Shown: piece after piece, positions 2,097 through 53,508 of the stretch | Layout: every line of letters starts with the position of its first letter | How positions within the stretch are numbered: position 1 is the first letter of the stretch | Assembly (NCBI GenBank): GCA_963733155.1 | Contig: CAVTCK010000017.1 | Location: forward strand, 9,590-73,589 | Direction: 5' to 3' | DNA from: an uncultured Actinomycetes bacterium | Lineage (GTDB): Bacteria; Actinomycetota; Thermoleophilia; Gaiellales; Gaiellaceae | Length of the DNA stretch: 64,000 nucleotides | Program-made: the position numbers and the translations under genes | The notes under the pieces: model-generated | Told to the model about the DNA's origin: nothing | The model's input: the letters and a program-made list of their open reading frames with translations, nothing else | Database searches by the model: none

Positions 2097-2672
2097 TCAG
2101 TCCTCGTACCCGCGGGCAGCGAGCTCGTGGCGAACGAGCGCGCGGGCCTTCTGCTCCCGTAGGCATTTCGGATCACGCACCGTACTTCCGTATGACGCAC
2201 CGAGCTTCGCGGCGATCGCGTCGCGAAGACCGGAAAAGCGCTCCGCTTCCGCTGCGTACGTCGGGGGGAGGTCGGCAAGGCCGAGTTGTTCGCAGGTGTA
2301 TTTGCCCGAGCTCGGGAACACGCCGAGCGCGCCCGTCGAGCACGCAGGCGGCCAGACTCTGGGTGCAGGCCCAGGTCCCATGTCTCCCTGGCGCCACAGC
2401 TCGGCGCAGATCGCCGTCGGATCCCTTCCGTCGGCGTTCACGATCGCGATGTTCCCGTCGAGGTCAGCTGTCTCGAAGCAGCCAACGCTTTCGAGATGGG
2501 TGGGCTCCCGGGTGAGCGCGTAGGTGGTGAAGCCGGTGACGGCCAGGACGGCGATGACCGCCGGACAAGCACGAGAGCCAGGCGAGCCTTCGCCGCGAGC
2601 CTCTGATCCCACATGATCAATTCCCTCACGAGATGCCCTTTCGAAGCTGGAGCGGTCCGGGAGGGAGGTCAC
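2097..2672 (-). CDS. Single-pass membrane protein, putative anti-sigma factor partner of the upstream ECF sigma factor
   Basis: 191-aa ORF starting 35 nt downstream of the sigma gene on the same strand. One hydrophobic helix (ACPAVIAVLAVTGFTTYAL) followed by a Cys-containing extracytoplasmic part. The function is inferred from position only. Confidence 0.45.
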   Translation of the reverse strand: MTSLPDRSSFERASREGIDHVGSEARGEGSPGSRACPAVIAVLAVTGFTTYALTREPTHLESVGCFETADLDGNIAIVNADGRDPTAICAELWRQGDMGPGPAPRVWPPACSTGALGVFPSSGKYTCEQLGLADLPPTYAAEAERFSGLRDAIAAKLGASYGSTVRDPKCLREQKARALVRHELAARGYED

Positions 2673-3334: not shown

Positions 3335-3349
3335 GCGTATCTTGAGAGA

Positions 3350-3395
3350 CGGGAGCGACGGGACCCGAACCCACGACCTCCGGCGTGACAGGCCG
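3350..3395 (-). repeat. Remnant copy of the 3' 46 nt of tRNA-Asp (att-like scar)
   Basis: cgggagcgacgggacccgaacccacgacctccggcgtgacaggccg matches the anticodon-loop-to-3'-end part of the intact tRNA-Asp at 6829-6902 with 2 mismatches. No D-arm or acceptor 5' half lies upstream. Confidence 0.7.
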
Positions 3396-6644: not shown

Positions 6645-6828
6645 CGCGAGCGGTTGAAGCTAGGCGATCACCGCGAGACGAAGCCCTGCGTCACGCTTGA
6701 GCAGATTGCAGCGCCGAGTAGCGTTGGACAGGCGGGCCAGAGCTGAGGAACGTTCAGGGCACTGAGCTGCAACCGCAGAGTGCCCGGACGTCTGTGCCAC
6801 GTCGGGCGCAAGCCGCTTGAGCAAAGGA

Positions 6829-6902
<74 letters not shown>

Positions 6903-7006
6903 GGGCGCCGGACAATCTTAGCCGCGGACGGGCGTCCCCGGGCGTGCCCAAGCGGAGCGAGGCGCCGCCGGTCACGGCGACGCCCCGCTCCAGGGCGGGC
7001 TCGGTC

Positions 7007-18325: not shown

Positions 18326-18472
18326 CGGCGGCAGGATGACACGGCCTCCGTCTCCGTGGCTGGCAACTTCTCGAGGGCGGCACCGGGGGCAGCACGCGAC
18401 GCCCTCAGGCGGGCTTCGTGGCAGCCATGTTTCGCTCAACCATGCGAAACCCGTTCAGCCATGGGGCTGGAG

Positions 18473-18545
18473 ATGGGCGGTGCCGGGCTCGAACCAGCGA
18501 CCTCCTGCTTGTAAGGCAGGCGCTCTCCCAACTGAGCTAACCGCC
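18473..18545 (-). tRNA. tRNA-Val(TAC): tRNA-Val (anticodon TAC)
   Basis: Reverse complement: GGGCGGTTAGCTCAGTTGGGAGAGCGCCTGCCTTACAAGCAGGAGGTCGCTGGTTCGAGCCCGGCACCGCCCA. Full cloverleaf. Confidence 0.95.
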
Positions 18546-18548
18546 CAG

Positions 18549-18621
18549 GTGCCCCCAGCGGGATTCGAACCCGCGCTACGGCCTTGAAAGGGCCGTGACC
18601 TGGGCCACTAGTCGATGGGGG
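18549..18621 (-). tRNA. tRNA-Glu(TTC): tRNA-Glu (anticodon TTC)
   Basis: Reverse complement: GCCCCCATCGACTAGTGGCCCAGGTCACGGCCCTTTCAAGGCCGTAGCGCGGGTTCGAATCCCGCTGGGGGCA. Confidence 0.95.
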
Positions 18622-18667
18622 CCAGGCGGGGCAAGGATAGCTGTCCTCCCTGGCTACACTCGCTGCG

Positions 18668-18740
18668 CGGGCCGGTAGCTCAGCTGGTAGAGCAGGGGAC
18701 TTTTAATCCCAAGGTCGCTGGTTCGAATCCAGCCCGGCCC
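18668..18740 (+). tRNA. tRNA-Lys(TTT): tRNA-Lys (anticodon TTT)
   Basis: GGGCCGGTAGCTCAGCTGGTAGAGCAGGGGACTTTTAATCCCAAGGTCGCTGGTTCGAATCCAGCCCGGCCCA. Confidence 0.95.
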
Positions 18741-19167
18741 ATTCCCCGCCGCACGGTTACGCGGAACCCGCATGGCTGCGTGGGTCAGGTGTGTCGGGAA
18801 TGCCGGAAATGCGCGGCCCGTGCTGTCCCGGTGCTGTCTCAGGAAATCGCCGAACTTGACAGCGGCGGAGCCGGCGAGGCGCGGGCCGCAAGGTCTCCCT
18901 AGGACTACCCTGCCCGCGCCCCGGCGAGAGTCAGGCTATGGCTTGCAGCCGGGCTGCCTAGATGGCCGTTCTGGCCATCAGGCAGACGGCTCTCGCCTTT
19001 GCTGTTTAGCGGCGCCACCCTAGGCGACCGAATCTCGGACACTCAGCGGCCAACGCCGGTCCGAAGGGAGTGCGACTGTTATGGCGAATCCGACGCCGTA
19101 CAGACGCGAAGGCAGCGTGAGCTCCCTTCACGACGCGGCTTGTGACATTCCCAGAAGAGAGGTAGGG

Positions 19168-22638: not shown

Positions 22639-23130
22639 GTGATCCTGCGCGAGCCCGCTACCGCGCCCGACCCGCGGGTGCGGACGTACTGGCTGGTCGA
22701 GAACCTGATCGCCACCGGCGTCGTCGCGGGGCTCGTGATCGCGGGCACGGTCGTCGCGGCCCTGCTGGGCGCGAGCACGGTGGCGTGGCTCGTGGGCGGG
22801 CTCGGCGGGCTCCTCGTCGTCGTCCTCGTGGTGCTCTCGTTCGTCGGCGCCGGGCTCGACTACCGGCACTTCCGCTACGAGGTCGCCGACCTCGGGCTCG
22901 CCGTCGCGAGCGGCTGGCTCTGGCGCCGCTACCAGGTCGTGCCGCACGCCCGCGTGCAGACGGTGGACACGACCTCGAACCCGCTGATGCGCGCATTCGG
23001 CCTCGTCTCGGTCGAGGTGACGACCGCGTCGGCGGCCGGCGGCACCTCGATCCCCGGGCTGACTCCGGAGGTCGCCGATGGGCTCGTCGAGGAGCTCGCG
23101 CGCCGCGCCGGCTTGGAGGAGGGAACCTGA
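22639..23130 (+). CDS. YdbS-like membrane protein with a bacterial PH (bPH_2) domain
   Basis: Two TM helices (ATGVVAGLVIAGTVVAALLG...LLVVVLVVLSFVGAGL), then YRHFRYEVADLGLAVASGWLWRRYQVVPHARVQTVDTTSNPLMRAFGLVSVEVTTA. Start taken at GTG 22639. Confidence 0.7.
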   Translation: MILREPATAPDPRVRTYWLVENLIATGVVAGLVIAGTVVAALLGASTVAWLVGGLGGLLVVVLVVLSFVGAGLDYRHFRYEVADLGLAVASGWLWRRYQVVPHARVQTVDTTSNPLMRAFGLVSVEVTTASAAGGTSIPGLTPEVADGLVEELARRAGLEEGT

Positions 23131-23266
23131 GCGTCGCTCGCCTTCGGCTCGCTCCCGTGGGGGAAACCATGTTTCCCCCACGTGCCCCCTTCTTTGAGAC
23201 AGTGAGGGAACCTCCCGGGTCCCTCACACGCCCTCCCCACCCTCACAGGCCTGGTGGCCTGTGAGC
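23127..23266 (+). repeat. Family-A intercistronic repeat, copy 1 (three hairpins; open 45-codon frame ending in a GTGA overlap)
   Basis: About 85-90% identical by eye to 51731-51873. Hairpins at 23157-23181, 23202-23227 and 23242-23265. Bounded by TGAGCG on both sides (the stop at 23128-23130 and the start at 23261-23263). Confidence 0.85.
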
Positions 23267-24697
23267 GCGAGGGCCGCCGAGCTCGAGGGGCGCTTGCACC
23301 CCCTCGCCGTGCTCGTCTATGCGCGCCGGTTCATCGGCGCGAGCATCCTGCCCCTCCTCGTGCTTCTGGTCTCCGCGGGCACGCGCGTGCTCGTCCCGCT
23401 CCTGGCGGTCGCGCTCTTCGTCGGGCTGCCGCTCGCGATCCTTTCCTGGTGGCGCTTCCGCTACCGCGTGAGCGGAGGGCGGCTCGAGCTCCACTCCGGC
23501 GTCTTCAGCCGGTCCGTGCGGACGATCCCGCGGGAGCGGGTTCGCGGCATCGACGTGACCGAGCCGTTCGTCCACCGGCTGTTCGGGCTCGTCAAGGTGG
23601 AGGTCGAAGCGGCAGCGGGAGGCGACTCGAAGCAGGCCGAGCTCTCGCTCGCTGCCGTCTCGCGCGGGCAGGCCGACGAGCTCCGCGAGGCGCTGCTCGG
23701 CGGCGGCGCGGGCGCCGCCGAGGCGGCGGAGGCCGAGCCGCTCTACCAGGCGACGCCGGGCCTGCTCGCCCTCGGCGGGATCACGAGCATGAGCTACCTC
23801 CTGGCCCCGGCCGCGATCGTCGGCGTCGTGCTCAACTTGGCGGACGATCTGCCCGGCGACGTTGTCGAGAGCGCCGTCGAGGGTGCTGCCGACCGATTCC
23901 CCACCGACCTCCTCGGGCTCGTTCTAGTCGGAACGGCGGCGGTCGCCGTCGTTCTCGCGGCTGCCGCCGCCGGCTCGCTGCTCGTCGACTGGGCGTTCAC
24001 GCTCAGGGACGAGGGCGAGCGGCTGGCCGCCACCCGCGGGCTACTCACGCGTCGCGCCGTTCATCTCGACCGGGATCGCATCCGCGGCGCGGACGTGCGC
24101 GATTCCCCGCTCCGGCGGCCGCTCCGCCTTGCCTCCGTCACGGCGATCGCCGCCGGGCTGCGCGGCCGCACCGGCGGGACCTCGCTTGCACCCGTGCTTC
24201 GCTCGCGGTCCGTCCCGGCTCTTCTTCGCGCTGTCGATCCCGCGGCGCCCGACCCGAGCGCGCCGCTCGTCGCTCATCCGCCCGCCGCGCGGTGGCGGCG
24301 GCTGACGCGGGCACTGCCGCTGCCGCTCGCCGGCCTGGTCGCCGCCGCAGTCTTCGGTGTCCTCTGGGCAGTCGCCGCTGCGGCGGCGCTCACGGCTGCG
24401 GCTGTCCCGCTCGCGCTCGACCGCTACCGCCAGCTCGGACACGCGTACGACGGCCGGCGTCTCGCTCTGCGAGGAGGCACGTTGCGACGCCGCTGGTCGG
24501 AGGTCGATCCCGACGGCGTCGTCTCCTTCGACCTGCGGAGCTCGCCGGGGCAGCGCCGTGCCGGCCTCGCCACGCTCACCGTCCACCTCGGGCAGGGCGC
24601 CGGCTCGCGCCGTGCTCTGGACATCGGGGAGGAGCAGGCGGCCGAGCTCCTCGGCCGCGTACACCCGCAGCTCTTCGGACCTCTCAGCCGACGCTGA
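23261..24697 (+). CDS. YdbT-like membrane protein with repeated bPH_2 domains
   Basis: LHPLAVLVYARRFIGASILP...WWRFRYRVSGGRLELHSGVFSRSVRTIPRERVRGIDVTEPFVHRLFGLVKVEVEAA, followed by two further similar modules. GTG start. Confidence 0.8.
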   Translation: MSARAAELEGRLHPLAVLVYARRFIGASILPLLVLLVSAGTRVLVPLLAVALFVGLPLAILSWWRFRYRVSGGRLELHSGVFSRSVRTIPRERVRGIDVTEPFVHRLFGLVKVEVEAAAGGDSKQAELSLAAVSRGQADELREALLGGGAGAAEAAEAEPLYQATPGLLALGGITSMSYLLAPAAIVGVVLNLADDLPGDVVESAVEGAADRFPTDLLGLVLVGTAAVAVVLAAAAAGSLLVDWAFTLRDEGERLAATRGLLTRRAVHLDRDRIRGADVRDSPLRRPLRLASVTAIAAGLRGRTGGTSLAPVLRSRSVPALLRAVDPAAPDPSAPLVAHPPAARWRRLTRALPLPLAGLVAAAVFGVLWAVAAAAALTAAAVPLALDRYRQLGHAYDGRRLALRGGTLRRRWSEVDPDGVVSFDLRSSPGQRRAGLATLTVHLGQGAGSRRALDIGEEQAAELLGRVHPQLFGPLSRR

Positions 24698-50409: not shown

Positions 50410-51153
50410 GTGCTGGTCTTCCGACATTTGACATCTGATCAAATGCGCGGGACGATGGCCGTCGTGAAGCGCACGGCGCTCGCCCAGGGGAAGCCGCGTC
50501 ATCAGACGATGGCGGAGGCGGCGGTAGCGGAGCTTCAGGAAGGGATCCTTACGGGTGAGCTGCCGCCGGGGTCGCCGCTCCGGCTCGAGGAGCTCGCCCG
50601 CTCGCTCGGGATGAGCATCTCCCCGGTTCGCGAGGCGGTGCGCCAGCTGGAGGGCCTGGGTCTCGCGGTGCACGTCCCGCACCGCGGTGCGCGGGTCAGT
50701 GAGCTTGCGATCGAGGACCTGCACGACGCTTACGAGGCCCGGCTCGCGCTCGAGCCGCTGGCCGTCCGCCGGGCGGCGGTGCGGTTCACCGACGAGGACG
50801 CCGAGCGCGGGCGTGTGCTCCTGGACGACTACGCGGCGGCGCATCGGCGCGGCGATCAGCGGGCCGCCCGTCGCTTCCACGCCGAGTTCCACCTCTCCCT
50901 GTACGCCGCCTCCGGCTCGGCCTGGCTCATGCGCCTGATCCGCCCCGCGTGGGAGAACTGCGAGCGCTACCGCGCGCTCTCCCTTGCCGGGCGGTCGCTT
51001 CGCCAGCGGCGCGAGGAGCACGAGGCGATCCTCGCGGCCTGCGCGCGTCAAGACCCGGACGAGGCCGCGGAGCTCGTTCGCCGGCACCTCTCGCTGACCG
51101 CCAACCTCGTCGCCCGGCGCATGGGCGCCGGCGACCTCTTCGAGAACTCGTGA
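50410..51153 (+). CDS. GntR-family (FadR/FCD subfamily) transcriptional regulator; the start is probably internal (ATG 50455 or 50509)
   Basis: HTH: LPPGSPLRLEELARSLGMSISPVREAVRQLEGLGLAVHVPHRGARV. FCD-like helical C-terminus: FHAEFHLSLYAASGSAWLMRLI... Confidence 0.8.
   Translation: MLVFRHLTSDQMRGTMAVVKRTALAQGKPRHQTMAEAAVAELQEGILTGELPPGSPLRLEELARSLGMSISPVREAVRQLEGLGLAVHVPHRGARVSELAIEDLHDAYEARLALEPLAVRRAAVRFTDEDAERGRVLLDDYAAAHRRGDQRAARRFHAEFHLSLYAASGSAWLMRLIRPAWENCERYRALSLAGRSLRQRREEHEAILAACARQDPDEAAELVRRHLSLTANLVARRMGAGDLFENS
50425..50445. promoter_or_regulatory. AT-rich inverted repeat with an embedded TTGACA, immediately upstream of or within the 5' end of the GntR gene (candidate operator or internal promoter)
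   Basis: CATTTGA-catctga-TCAAATG. TTGACA at 50428-50433. Confidence 0.35.
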
Positions 51154-51734
51154 GCGACTACGCGGAATTCGCGCCCGACCCCCGGGTCCTCGTCGGCGGC
51201 TACATCGAGGCGGATCCCGCCTTCGCCCCGCGCCGGCCGGCCAGCGTGGACGAGGAGACGTTCAAGTCCGCGATGCGCTCGCTCGCCGCGGGCGTCGTCA
51301 TGGTGATCGCGCGCAAGGGCGACCGGCTCTGGGGCCTGACGATCAGCGCGTGCTGCTCGATCTCGGCCAACCCGCCCCGGGTGCTGATCTCGCTCGCCGA
51401 CGACGCGAGCTGCCGGGACGCGATCCTCGAGACGCGGCGCTTCGGCCTCAGCGTGCTCCGCGACGACCAGAAGCATCTGGCCGAGCTCGGCGCGGTGCCG
51501 GGCGCGCCCAAGTATGTGGACGTGTTCTGCGAGGACGCGGGCTCCGAGGAGCCGACGACGATGATCGCGGGCGCGCTCGTCCACCTCGAGTGCGCCGTCG
51601 AGCGCGTCTTCGGCGTGAGCGGCCACACGCTCCTGATCGGCGACGTTCAAGCAGTCGTCTCCTCGAGCCGCGAGGGCGGCCCGCTCCTCTACTTCGACCG
51701 CACCTTTCACGCGCTCGGAGACACCCTGCGATGA
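51150..51734 (+). CDS. Flavin reductase (FMN-binding split-barrel) family protein
   Basis: FKSAMRSLAAGVVMVIARKGDRLWGLTISACCSISANPPRVLISL...TLLIGDVQAVV...PLLYFDRTFHAL. GTG start in a GTGA overlap with the gntR-like gene. Confidence 0.8.
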   Translation: MSDYAEFAPDPRVLVGGYIEADPAFAPRRPASVDEETFKSAMRSLAAGVVMVIARKGDRLWGLTISACCSISANPPRVLISLADDASCRDAILETRRFGLSVLRDDQKHLAELGAVPGAPKYVDVFCEDAGSEEPTTMIAGALVHLECAVERVFGVSGHTLLIGDVQAVVSSSREGGPLLYFDRTFHALGDTLR

Positions 51735-51873
51735 GCGTCGCTCGCCTCCGGCTCGCTCCTGTGGGGGAAACCAGCGCTCCCCCACGGGCCCCCTTCTTTG
51801 AGACAGTGAGGGAACCTCCCGGTTCCCTCACACACCCTCCACACGCTCATAGGCCAAAGGTCGGCCTATGAGC
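51731..51873 (+). repeat. Family-A intercistronic repeat, copy 2 (46-codon ORF with ATGA overlaps at both ends; three hairpins)
   Basis: ORF MSVARLRLAPVGETSAPPRAPFFETVREPPGSLTHPPHAHRPKVGL, 51731-51871. Hairpins at 51761-51785, 51806-51831 and 51846-51872. Flanked by ATGAGCG on both sides. Confidence 0.85.
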
Positions 51874-53508
51874 GAGCGCTACGACGTCGTTTTCGTCGGC
51901 AGCGGCATCAACTCGCTCGTCGCTGCAGCTCTCCTCGCCCGCGGGGGGAAGCGCGTGCTCGTGCTCGAGCGCAACGACTACGTCGGGCGGCGCGATCCGG
52001 ACCGCGGAGATCACCGAGCCGGGCTTCGTGCACGAGGTCTTCTCCTCGCTGGCACCCGCTCTTCCTCGGCTCGGCGGCCTATGCCGAGCTTGGGGAGGAG
52101 CTGGGCTCGCGTGGCCTCGAGTACCTGAACACCGAGCTGCCGACGGCCTCGCTCTTCCCGGACGGCTCGAGCGCGTTCCTGAGCACGTCCCACGAGGCAA
52201 ACGTGGAGGAGTTCGAGCGGCTCGCGCCCGGGGACGGCGAAGCCTGGCGGCGGGTCGTCGACGGGTTCATGCCCACCGCCGACCTGGCGTTCGGCGTGCT
52301 CGGCACGGAGCTCTGGTCGTCGTCCGGCGCCGGCCTCGGCGTCAAGGCGTACCGCCGGCTGGGACGGCGCGGCCTGGTCGAGTTCAGCGGCGCTCTGCTC
52401 GCCTCCTGCCGCGACTGGGTCGCCGAGACGTTCGCCTCACCGCAGGTGCACGGGCTCCTCGCCCCGTGGGTCCTGCACACGGGGGTCGGGCCGGACGCGG
52501 CCTCCTCCGGGTTCATGACCCGCGTGATCGCGGTGGCGATCGAGCTCGGCGGCATGCCGGTTCCCCGCGGCGGCGGCGTGCGGCTCGTGGAGGCGCTCAC
52601 GGGGATCGTCCGCGACGCGGGCGGCGCCTGCGAGACGGGCCGCGACGTGGAGCGCGTCCTCGTCCGCGACGGACGCGCCGCCGGGGTCGCGCTCGCCGGG
52701 GGCGAGACCGTCGAGGCCGGGGAGGCCGTCGTCGCCAACGTCACTCCGACCCAGCTCTACGACCGGTTGCTCGCCGGCGTCTCGATCCCGGCCGAGACGG
52801 CGGAGGCGGCCCGCCGGTTTCGCTACGGCCGCGCGGGCATGCAGATCCACATGGCCCTCTCGGAGCCGCCGCGCTGGGCGGGCGACGAGCGGCTCGGGCG
52901 CACCGCGATCGTCCACCTCACGCCCGGCCTCGACGGCGTCTCCCGGGCGGTGAACGAGGCAGAGCGGGGGCTGCTCCCGGCCGAGGCGACGATCGTCTGC
53001 GGGCAGCCGACGACGGTCGACCCTTCGCGCGCTCCGGAGGGCGCGTCGATCCTGTGGATCCAGCTCCAGGAGCTGCCGGCGCACGTGCGCGGCGACGCCG
53101 CCGGCGAGCTCGACGTCGGAGACGGGGCGTGGACGGGAGGGCTTGCGGGAGCAGTACGCAGACCGCATCCAGGCCCGCCTCGCGCTGCAGATCGAGAACC
53201 TCGACTCGGCGCTCCTCGAGCGCGTCGTCCTCTCGCCCGCGGACATCGAGACGGCCAACATGAACATGGTCGGCGGCGACATCTACAGCGGCTCCTGCAG
53301 CCTCGACCAGAATCTCGTCTGGCGGCCGCGCCCCGAGCTTCCCGGCCACGGGACGCCGATCGACGGGCTGTACCACATCGGCGCGAGCACGCATCCCGGC
53401 CCCGGGCTGGGGGCGGGCTCGGGGACGCTCGTGGCGAAGCACCTGCTCAAGCCGCCGCTCCCCAAGCGGGCGCTCAGCCGCCTGGGATCGCTTCGGGAGC
53501 GGGTTTGA
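51868..53508 (+). pseudogene. Phytoene-desaturase-family NAD(P)/FAD-dependent oxidoreductase (CrtI-like), 3 frameshifts
   Basis: MSERYDVVFVGSGINSLVAAALLARGGKRVLVLERNDYVG / AIRTAEITEPGFVHEVFSS / HPLFLGSAAYAELG...MEEFERLAPGDGEAW...GMPVPRGGGVRLVEAL... / REQYADRIQARL...GGDIYSGSCSLDQ...GLYHIGASTHPGPGLGAGSG, in ORFs 51868-, 52028-, 52203- and 53143-53508. Confidence 0.8.

Follow-up and report, generated by a model that had tools for sequence, protein, structure and literature searches.

Mycobacterial interspersed repetitive units (MIRU) are repeats of 40–100 bp located in the intergenic regions of operons, and they contain open reading frames (ORFs) whose ends overlap with the adjacent genes (Supply et al. 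1997, summarised in PMC3184786). They show tetranucleotide direct repeats, and an empty site is known from M. leprae (PMC3184786). MIRU are described to insert at start codons, with their internal ORF coupled at a spacing of −4 (PMC12548453). Here we describe a repeat family from a different class of Actinomycetota with a similar arrangement. We analyzed a stretch of 64,000 nucleotides (nt) with a G+C content of about 70% from an uncultured member of the Gaiellaceae (contig CAVTCK010000017.1 of assembly GCA_963733155.1, positions 9,590 to 73,589, forward strand; in the following called the window), which contains two copies of the repeat. Based on their position, reading frame and distribution in related genomes, we consider it likely that these copies belong to a MIRU-like mobile intercistronic mosaic element which is specific to the Gaiellales/Thermoleophilia lineage, is located at RTGA stop/start overlaps and preserves translational coupling between the flanking genes. 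Loci from other assemblies are referred to by their locus numbers (L or P followed by digits).

An earlier note on this DNA, made from the letters alone, had described a repeat of about 130 nt in two copies of the same orientation, and the sequence at 23127–23266 and 51731–51873 is as described. Both copies are located on the same strand and each fills the gap between the TGA of the upstream gene and the GTG or ATG of the downstream gene. The similarity between them begins exactly at the upstream TGA (23128–23130 for copy 1, 51732–51734 for copy 2) and ends a few bases past the downstream start: mean column identity is 87% when the flanks are included and 90% across 124 nt. Within the window, core 27- and 34-mers are each found exactly two times, with 0 occurrences expected from shuffled sequences, and an nhmmer profile search of the 64-kb window revealed no third copy. 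The flanking genes are unrelated, again as the note had it: Pfam assigns a pair with one and three bPH_2 domains to copy 1, and a Flavin_Reduct protein followed by an FAD/NAD(P)-binding oxidoreductase to copy 2. Both copies are bounded by TGAGCG, the left one being the upstream stop and the right one forming GTGA or ATGA together with the downstream start codon. Folding of both copies yields the three hairpins named before (SL1, SL2 and SL3) and in addition a weaker hairpin at the 5’ end, SL0 (z-scores against shuffled sequences: copy 1, −5.5; copy 2, −5.7). The two copies differ in length by 3 nt, all of which are located in the SL3 loop.

A feature overlooked by the earlier note is a mini-ORF: the frame that begins with the base before the upstream TGA stays open throughout the element, for 45 codons in copy 1 and 46 codons in copy 2. 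In copy 1 a CTG in start position overlaps with the TGA of the ydbS-like gene (CTGA), and the terminal TGA (23262–23264) overlaps with the GTG of the ydbT-like gene (GTGA). In copy 2 the ATG at 51731 overlaps with the upstream TGA (ATGA), and the TGA at 51869–51871 overlaps with the downstream ATG at 51868 (again ATGA). The former 4-nt overlap is thus replaced by two 4-nt overlaps, one at each end of the element. In about 80% of copies of the family the apical loop of SL1 also contains an ATG or GTG that is in frame (AAACC ATG TTTCC; 23169–23171 in the window), preceded by a G-rich stem arm. This codon could serve as an internal start of the mini-ORF where the left codon is no start, as is the case for the CTG of copy 1.

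In order to find further copies we scanned one genome per species with two peptide patterns derived from the alignment of the two mini-ORFs, followed by confirmation with tblastn. From 454 pattern matches, 367 stretches were confirmed in species-representative genomes. All 79 loci that were kept are from metagenome-assembled genomes classified as Gaiellaceae, Gaiellales or Thermoleophilia, and the family is confined to this lineage. A DNA profile search of these loci resulted in 90 matches, 77 of them full length, including 6 extra copies detected by DNA alone; four full copies are located in one operon. Since the peptide patterns bias the genome set towards intact frames, a second set was assembled from metagenome contigs chosen by a 23-mer of the 5’ module only, and this set comprises at least 120 soil-metagenome contigs. 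The earlier note had taken the two copies as members of a repeat family, for which these numbers speak clearly. At least 678 clusters of “hypothetical proteins” of 45–47 or 63 amino acids match the mini-ORF, none of them with a family assignment. No match was found on plasmids (blastn with the 137-nt element) or on viral contigs (scan with the 5’ 23-mer), and we found nothing specific on Gaiellales repeats in the literature.

The element is built from modules: a constant 5’ module (xTGA-SCG-TCGCTCGCCTYCGGCTCGCTCC) is followed by zero to about four internal hairpin modules, which are SL1 and SL2 in the window copies, and by the constant SL3. One 5’ 23-mer recovers all size forms. Among the metagenome contigs listed, element lengths form a series of 42, 54, 60, … 141, … 192 and up to 270 nt, of which 192 nt is the commonest. 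Nearly all copies are single; in L106 two 192-nt units are arranged in tandem and share an ATGA. Many short-read contigs end inside the element (L014, L018, L029, L042, L059, L062, L072 and L078), so the repeat breaks assemblies. At two places (L111 ~1500–1540; L112 ~2540–2580 (minus strand)) the 5’ 23-mer is preceded by a GGCTCGCTC half-repeat, and the surrounding non-coding sequence is conserved, AT-richer and unrelated to the family; no Rfam match was found for it.

We then determined the position of the elements in relation to the neighboring genes, identifying coding frames by their third-position G+C. The downstream coding frame begins at the terminal RTG of the element in 70 of 77 cases in the genome set and in 79 of 86 cases among the metagenome contigs listed. 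The upstream coding frame ends at the TGA of the element in about 55 of 77 and in 70 of 88 cases, respectively. In the exceptions the upstream stop is located a few bases earlier, or the upstream gene is divergent. In neither set did we see a copy inverted relative to the downstream gene. These counts confirm the placement at gene junctions and the single orientation. The proposal of an operon-junction-specific family holds for most copies in terms of placement, but the exceptions show that the invariant feature is the downstream start codon and not the operon junction. In an arginine operon (L007 5001–9001, CAWBAC010000005.1) all five junctions of argC-argJ-argB-argD-argR-argG contain an element: four 141-nt copies and one 48-nt short form (GTGGTCGCTCGCCTCCGCCTCGTTCATCGACCGGAGACCGGCCGATGA). 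The element is therefore tolerated in essential operons.

The reading frame of the element is maintained as well. When SL3 was located irrespective of frame in the listed metagenome contigs, the terminal RTGA was in frame with the initial xTGA in 63 of 65 elements, and 17 length classes of this sample were in frame compared to 2 out of frame. An open frame is also present in each of the 6 copies that were detected in the locus flanks by DNA alone. Long and short orthologous forms differ by in-frame deletions, e.g. of 75 nt between L041 and L058/L060. A frameshifted copy is present in L136. In principle, these data could also be read as a genuine family of small proteins of about 45–63 amino acids whose product is the function, as the frame stays open and gene callers predict the ORFs in hundreds of assemblies. 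The composition of the mini-ORF argues against this: G+C at the third codon position is 0.60 as compared to 0.92–0.93 in the flanking host genes. The three codon positions vary almost equally (0.073, 0.071 and 0.100), and neither host-like codon usage nor purifying selection at the level of codons is apparent. The size ranges from 13 to 89 codons, and the C-terminal residues change along with the covariation of the SL3 stem. Furthermore, copies persist that read half of the element in another frame. In L159, L160 and L184 two nucleotides are missing at the left end and the first half is read in the other frame (MSRSPSARSRGGNHVSPTSPLL...); the usual out-of-frame TTTGA stop is lost, a second indel restores the standard frame, and the end on ATGA is kept. 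The peptide has no Pfam or NCBIfam match. Given codon usage, the alternative-frame copies and the missing family match we rejected a small-protein gene, which we regard as extremely improbable. Codon statistics and the alternative-frame copies instead show that the continuity of the ORF is conserved and that the peptide is not the selected product. Stalling at polyproline stretches relieved by elongation factor P was also rejected: the 141-nt form contains FPPR, EPPG and HPPH motifs, but the commonest 192-nt form lacks these Pro-Pro motifs.

Next, we compared filled and empty sites in related genomes. For the ydbS/ydbT junction, orthologues of ydbT were retrieved by homology search, the exact ydbT product of the window not being on record. 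L205 (99% amino acid identity of ydbT) contains the same 138-nt element with 2 substitutions. With decreasing identity the site is empty in L200 (92%, CTGA) and L201 (89%, ATGATGG), occupied by a 45-nt form in L206 (87%) and a 57-nt form in L202 (83%), a 4-nt overlap judged by gene coordinates alone in P0009 (81%), and again empty in L203 (79%, GTGAGCA) and L204 (76%, GTGAGCG). Presence at this junction is thus patchy, and the element has been remodelled in place. The prediction that orthologous empty sites are simple xTGA overlaps is borne out by L204, L203 and L201. At the empty site of L200 (~1150–1200; AAC CTGA ATC) a C precedes the TGA as in the filled sites of the window and L202, and the overlap contains no canonical start. 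This site may be the scar of a precise excision.

Five more filled/empty comparisons were made beyond ydbS/ydbT, and in three of them the empty site is a plain xTGA overlap. L030 is empty (ATGACTG; ...GA ATGA CTGCTCCGCTC), while in L040 and L056 the element is located between two xTGA and the length of the downstream protein is kept (MTAPLL in L030 versus VSAPLL / MTTPLL). In the second case L036, L027 and L051 are empty (GTGACGG, GTGAGCG and GTGACCG) and L076 and L065 are filled; in the third L017 and L019 are empty (GTGAGCC and GTGACTC) and L054 is filled. These comparisons indicate precise insertion at xTGA overlaps and make it probable that the element is mobile. The window itself contains an unoccupied GTGAGCG junction, which had been noted before and is a real overlap between the stop of a GntR/FCD regulator and the GTG of the flavin-reductase-like gene.

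The ends of the element are direct repeats. The left end agrees with the right end more often than by chance at x (p = 0.00025) and at the first base after TGA (p = 5e-5), and not further. Native unoccupied RTGA junctions are mostly GTGA, followed by GCG in only 15%; at the right end of the element, ATGA accounts for 80% and GCG for 68%. The earlier idea of an insertion into an xTGA overlap that duplicated this overlap is therefore supported, with concordance for xTGA plus one base only, and the GCG at the right end is largely element-borne or selected. Terminal inverted repeats are absent: local alignment of the left 35 nt with the reverse complement of the right 35 nt gives only the SL3 arm (ATGAGCGT). 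A classical MITE (a miniature transposable element with inverted repeats) was rejected on these grounds. An alternative helix in which the left end (ATGAGCGT) pairs over a long range with the 5’ arm of SL3 (ACGCTCAT) was likewise rejected as a conserved feature, since position 5 on the left is C or A in about one third of the copies and its partner in column 116 mostly stays C. No long variant with a transposase-like ORF was present among about 200 loci, in which no systematic search for a parent insertion sequence (IS) was made. L177 was considered as a parent element and rejected, as this copy is truncated and located where an operon ends.

As to how copies spread, one possibility is recognition of the hairpinned ends by an enzyme; another is that RTGAGCG microhomologies serve for template switching or gene conversion. 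Both have been considered as explanations at the level of DNA, in which hairpins and ends would serve as single-stranded or cruciform recognition sites for a recombinase or an HUH-type transposase (as in IS200/IS605 and REP-RAYT systems; REP, repetitive extragenic palindrome), or copies would arise by exchange between microhomologies, the open frame being a survival filter only. Constant ends with a variable interior, the concordant direct repeats at the ends and the tandem copies with a shared ATGA fit such an origin. So does the finding that the identity of orthologous copies (0.87–0.94) hardly exceeds that of random pairs (0.86), which suggests homogenisation. On the other hand terminal inverted repeats are lacking, and no candidate enzyme gene turned up, though none was looked for systematically. 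Taken together we regard these two DNA-level variants as quite improbable full explanations; they concern the spread of copies and do not contradict that copies persist where coupling is preserved.

An alignment of 71 copies was used to assess the hairpins. Pairing is present in 93% of the cells of this alignment and double changes in 17 pairs, a result reached by 0 of 500 shuffles, and controls with slid helices are paired at 30–48%. The pairing of SL0 is weakly supported: its helix 1 is paired in 89%, and pair 5–26 is unpaired in 32 of the 71 copies. Most covariation is located in SL3 and includes pairs that extend to codon 2 of the gene downstream. In the orthologous copies L040 and L056 SL3 has diverged with compensating changes, and in the window a compensatory T-A pair in copy 2 replaces the C-G of copy 1, tracking the ATG or GTG start. 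The downstream start codon is located in the stem of SL3, and the loop is usually purine-rich and resembles a Shine-Dalgarno (SD) sequence. The 3’ arm in copy 1 comprises the ydbT-like GTG, the TGA of the mini-ORF and the first bases of ydbT. Using GGAG, GAGG or AGGA 4–16 nt before the downstream start as a strict definition, an SD-like motif is present in 45% of the elements, and in 70% with a relaxed definition, against a background of 15% and 20%. The motif is mostly absent from the 138-nt class that includes copy 1, with its loop TGGT. The statement of the earlier note that no good SD sequence precedes the start codon is thus correct for copy 1 and incorrect for copy 2 (AAAGGTC) and most of the family. 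Host DNA before the start of the mini-ORF is also enriched in SD motifs (36% strict). Neither copy contains an intrinsic terminator (GC hairpin and T-run) or a sigma-70 promoter (−35/−10 hexamers), with 0 sites each, in agreement with the earlier view that the repeat is not a terminator.

Orthologous element pairs are 87–94% identical, whereas four-fold sites of the adjacent genes are identical at 45–72% only. The element is therefore conserved more strongly than neutral sequence. Random pairs of elements average 86% identity, so purifying selection and homogenisation are indistinguishable. Strong conservation together with conserved unpaired linkers and a start codon masked by a covarying hairpin whose loop is SD-like could indicate a domesticated cis-regulatory RNA module. 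The family would then be a dispersed regulon signal and not a selfish insertion, and its hairpins would control the downstream gene as a thermosensor, as a site of RNase processing or RNA stability, or by binding a protein or small RNA. We consider this unlikely for several reasons. The downstream genes are functionally unrelated (ydbT-like, oxidoreductase, arg genes and many others), presence at one site is patchy among close relatives, and internal modules are freely gained and lost. On the transcribed strand there is no excess of G.U over A.C. Rfam 15 detects only tRNAs in the window at gathering thresholds, and a search at E≤10 gave nothing credible for the element, the best sub-threshold score being 19.4 bits compared to a cutoff of 58.6 bits. 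A regulatory role is nevertheless compatible with secondary exaptation of some copies.

These data are most simply accounted for by the mechanism that has been proposed for MIRU, in which coupling is preserved. Ribosomes arriving from the upstream gene, or bound at the old SD sequence of the host which is now located before the mini-ORF, would translate the element. In doing so they would melt its hairpins including SL3, which holds the downstream start codon, and would terminate on the UGA overlapping with the downstream AUG or GUG. They would then re-initiate at the downstream start, or the start would be exposed for initiation. An insertion that is inverted, out of frame or located elsewhere would be lost, as it would leave the downstream gene uncoupled or silent. 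Coupling and operon stoichiometry would hence survive an insertion, which would explain why only in-frame and correctly oriented copies at start codons persist. From the sequence we infer that the mini-ORF is translated and coupled to its neighbors. A more far-reaching version holds that the copies are portable, hairpin-gated “translational couplers” under purifying selection at dozens of junctions, and that RTGA is targeted without a classical transposase. Targeting could then occur by pairing of the 5’ arm of SL3 (CGCTCAY) with RTGAGCG at the target, or by template switching between microhomologies at the junctions. If this were true, downstream translation would strictly depend on upstream translation at those operon junctions. 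We regard this version as conceivable but doubtful.

Several observations weigh against a mobile element that preserves coupling. With its CTG start and without an SD-like SL3 loop, copy 1 may be poorly coupled at its site. The genome set is biased to intact frames, and the metagenome set is a partial correction which itself needs an intact 5’ 23-mer. In SL1–SL3, A.C mismatches (G.U on the minus strand) outnumber G.U pairs of the plus strand, in counts that are not independent events, so the hairpins are not demonstrably selected as plus-strand RNA; the excess fits pairing of the minus strand and thus the DNA-level explanations. Unpaired linkers are conserved as much as the stems, which is explained by neither coupling nor hairpins; gene conversion among copies or a role in recognition by DNA or protein may contribute, and the DNA-level explanations would account for this too. 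ATGAGCG at the right end is far more uniform than at native junctions, so that a plain 7-bp target duplication is not the whole story. Finally, no transposase or parent element turned up, in an analysis that did not include a systematic search. Taking these points into account, we still favor a MIRU-like element retained at RTGA overlaps.

The coordinates of the elements, their hairpins and the neighboring genes in the window are given in Table 1.

Table 1. Features of the two repeat-containing regions (positions refer to the window).
Feature	Position	Strand	Remarks
Element copy 1, long form	23127..23264	+	138 nt; open frame of 45 codons
SL0, constant 5’ module of copy 1 (GAGCG..TCGCTCGCCTTCGGCTCGCTC)	23129..23154	+	Fold; most conserved sequence across all size forms
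SL1 of copy 1 (CGTGGGGGAAACC ATG TTTCCCCCACG)	23156..23182	+	97% paired; compensatory UA<->CG at pair 32–54
Pyrimidine-rich unpaired linker of copy 1 (TGCCCCCTTCTTTGAGACA)	23183..23201	+	Near-invariant between copies
SL2 of copy 1 (GTGAGGGAACC TCCC GGGTCCCTCAC)	23202..23227	+	96% paired; AU<->GC at pair 79–98 in 14 copies
SL3, constant 3’ module of copy 1	23240..23267	+	Core 23242–23251 / 23256–23265; covariation at 11 of 14 pairs
Element copy 2, long form	51731..51871	+	141 nt; 46-codon open frame
SL0 / 5’ module of copy 2	51733..51758	+	
SL1 of copy 2	51758..51788	+	Fold; loop unlike copy 1
SL2 of copy 2	51806..51831	+	Fold
SL3 of copy 2	51844..51874	+	Loop AAAGGTC, SD-like
ydbS-like gene, one bPH_2 domain	22639..23130	+	Start approximate; Pfam bPH_2 match in ORF ending at 23130
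ydbT-like gene, three bPH_2 domains	23261..24697	+	Start codon GTG (23261–23263) inside copy 1
Flavin-reductase-like gene (Flavin_Reduct)	51150..51734	+	TGA 51732–51734 bounds copy 2 on the left
FAD/NAD(P)-binding oxidoreductase gene, 5’ part	51868..52128	+	Begins inside copy 2
Unoccupied GTGAGCG stop/start overlap	51150..51156	+	TGA is the GntR/FCD regulator stop; in-frame GTG is the flavin-reductase start

On contig L205 (98.7% identical) a gene of 163 amino acids is called at the position of the ydbS-like gene. The oxidoreductase ORF downstream of copy 2 (51868–52200) changes frame near 51985–52030: an ORF of 86 amino acids contains the NAD_binding_8 match and the rest continues in another frame. 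This reflects either a pseudogene or an assembly indel. Elsewhere in the window a 48-nt copy of the 3’ half of tRNA-Asp (3348–3395 and 6826–6903, 96% identical) is located 3.4 kb from the intact gene. Judged by sequence, this partial copy resembles the att duplication of an integrated element. The interval between the two encodes an ankyrin-like ORF and two proteins of the RibD_C type; an integrase was not found in it. At 18472–18741 three tRNA genes are clustered, of which Val-TAC and Glu-TTC are encoded by the minus strand and Lys-TTT by the plus strand.

A repeat that lives in operons only by re-creating stop/start overlaps represents a natural experiment on translational coupling. It is available at hundreds of independent junctions with graded spacers (42–270 nt), hairpin loads and SD-like loops, and with matched empty sites in relatives. 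The contested mechanisms of coupling thereby become directly testable, namely whether re-initiation or the unfolding of RNA is decisive and how coupling depends on distance and structure. The element also affects annotation: mini-ORFs are called as hypothetical proteins, assemblies break at the element, and downstream starts are mis-called.

Several described repeats share some of these properties. REP elements, their mosaic arrangements (BIMEs) and MITEs such as Correia, ERIC and RUP are, like the family described here, small, non-autonomous, multi-copy, modular and hairpin-forming, and are located in transcribed intergenic DNA. However, they are found in either orientation, usually behind stop codons or within untranslated regions, and have no requirement for an open frame. 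MITEs possess terminal inverted repeats, and REP sequences consist of GTAG-headed palindromes with a RAYT partner. The present family differs by its single orientation, its direct-repeat ends, the lack of a terminal inverted repeat and the maintained frame. REP/REPIN-RAYT sequences (extragenic palindromes of 20–40 nt in both orientations) were rejected because our elements have a single orientation relative to genes and include start and stop codons, which upholds the earlier judgement that this is not an ordinary REP element. [quoted passage not shown] They carry a promoter and no mini-ORF over the upstream stop has been described for them, whereas we found no promoter-like site and the elements would be read through from the upstream gene. 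Rickettsia palindromic elements (RPE) likewise are palindromic repeats that persist only where the frame stays open (PMC3184786). In contrast to the separate cistron between genes found here, RPE lie within ORFs of the host, and their translation product forms part of the host protein. A fusion of this kind seems exceptional in our family: in L121 (4115–5257) the 5’ module (MSVARLRLAP) is fused in frame to an ORF of 380 amino acids that looks by sequence like a class-III (ArgD-type) aminotransferase, apparently an element remnant turned into an N-terminal extension. In the coat-lysis/replicase region of MS2 and in rpmI-rplT the downstream start is also located in a hairpin opened by the upstream ribosome, with the −4 spacing favoring re-initiation (PMC12548453). 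These arrangements are single and gene-specific, whereas the one described here is carried on a portable repeat.

The closest known kind is MIRU, a comparison that the earlier note had not drawn. As all our matches are from Thermoleophilia, we do not claim membership in the MIRU sequence family. Both are short multi-copy repeats between operon genes in one orientation, with an ORF whose ends overlap the flanking stop and start codons at −4 spacing. Tetranucleotide direct repeats and empty orthologous sites suggest insertion in both cases, size classes differ by internal segments, tandem copies occur (here in L106), and their tolerance is thought to be due to the kept translational coupling. 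MIRU are found in the M. tuberculosis complex and M. leprae and form head-to-tail arrays of variable numbers of tandem repeats, whereas the present family belongs to the Thermoleophilia/Gaiellales, a different class of the Actinomycetota, and is mostly present as single units. It further differs by a mosaic of strong GC hairpins between constant ends, by a covarying terminal hairpin with an SD-like loop that buries the downstream start, and by a size range (42–270 nt) wider than that of MIRU. Beyond the earlier note, our analysis adds the mini-ORF, the series of modular forms, the distribution across lineages, and evidence for selection on frame continuity rather than on the peptide. The strategy of MIRU is thus not a mycobacterial oddity and recurs in a distant and abundant soil lineage.

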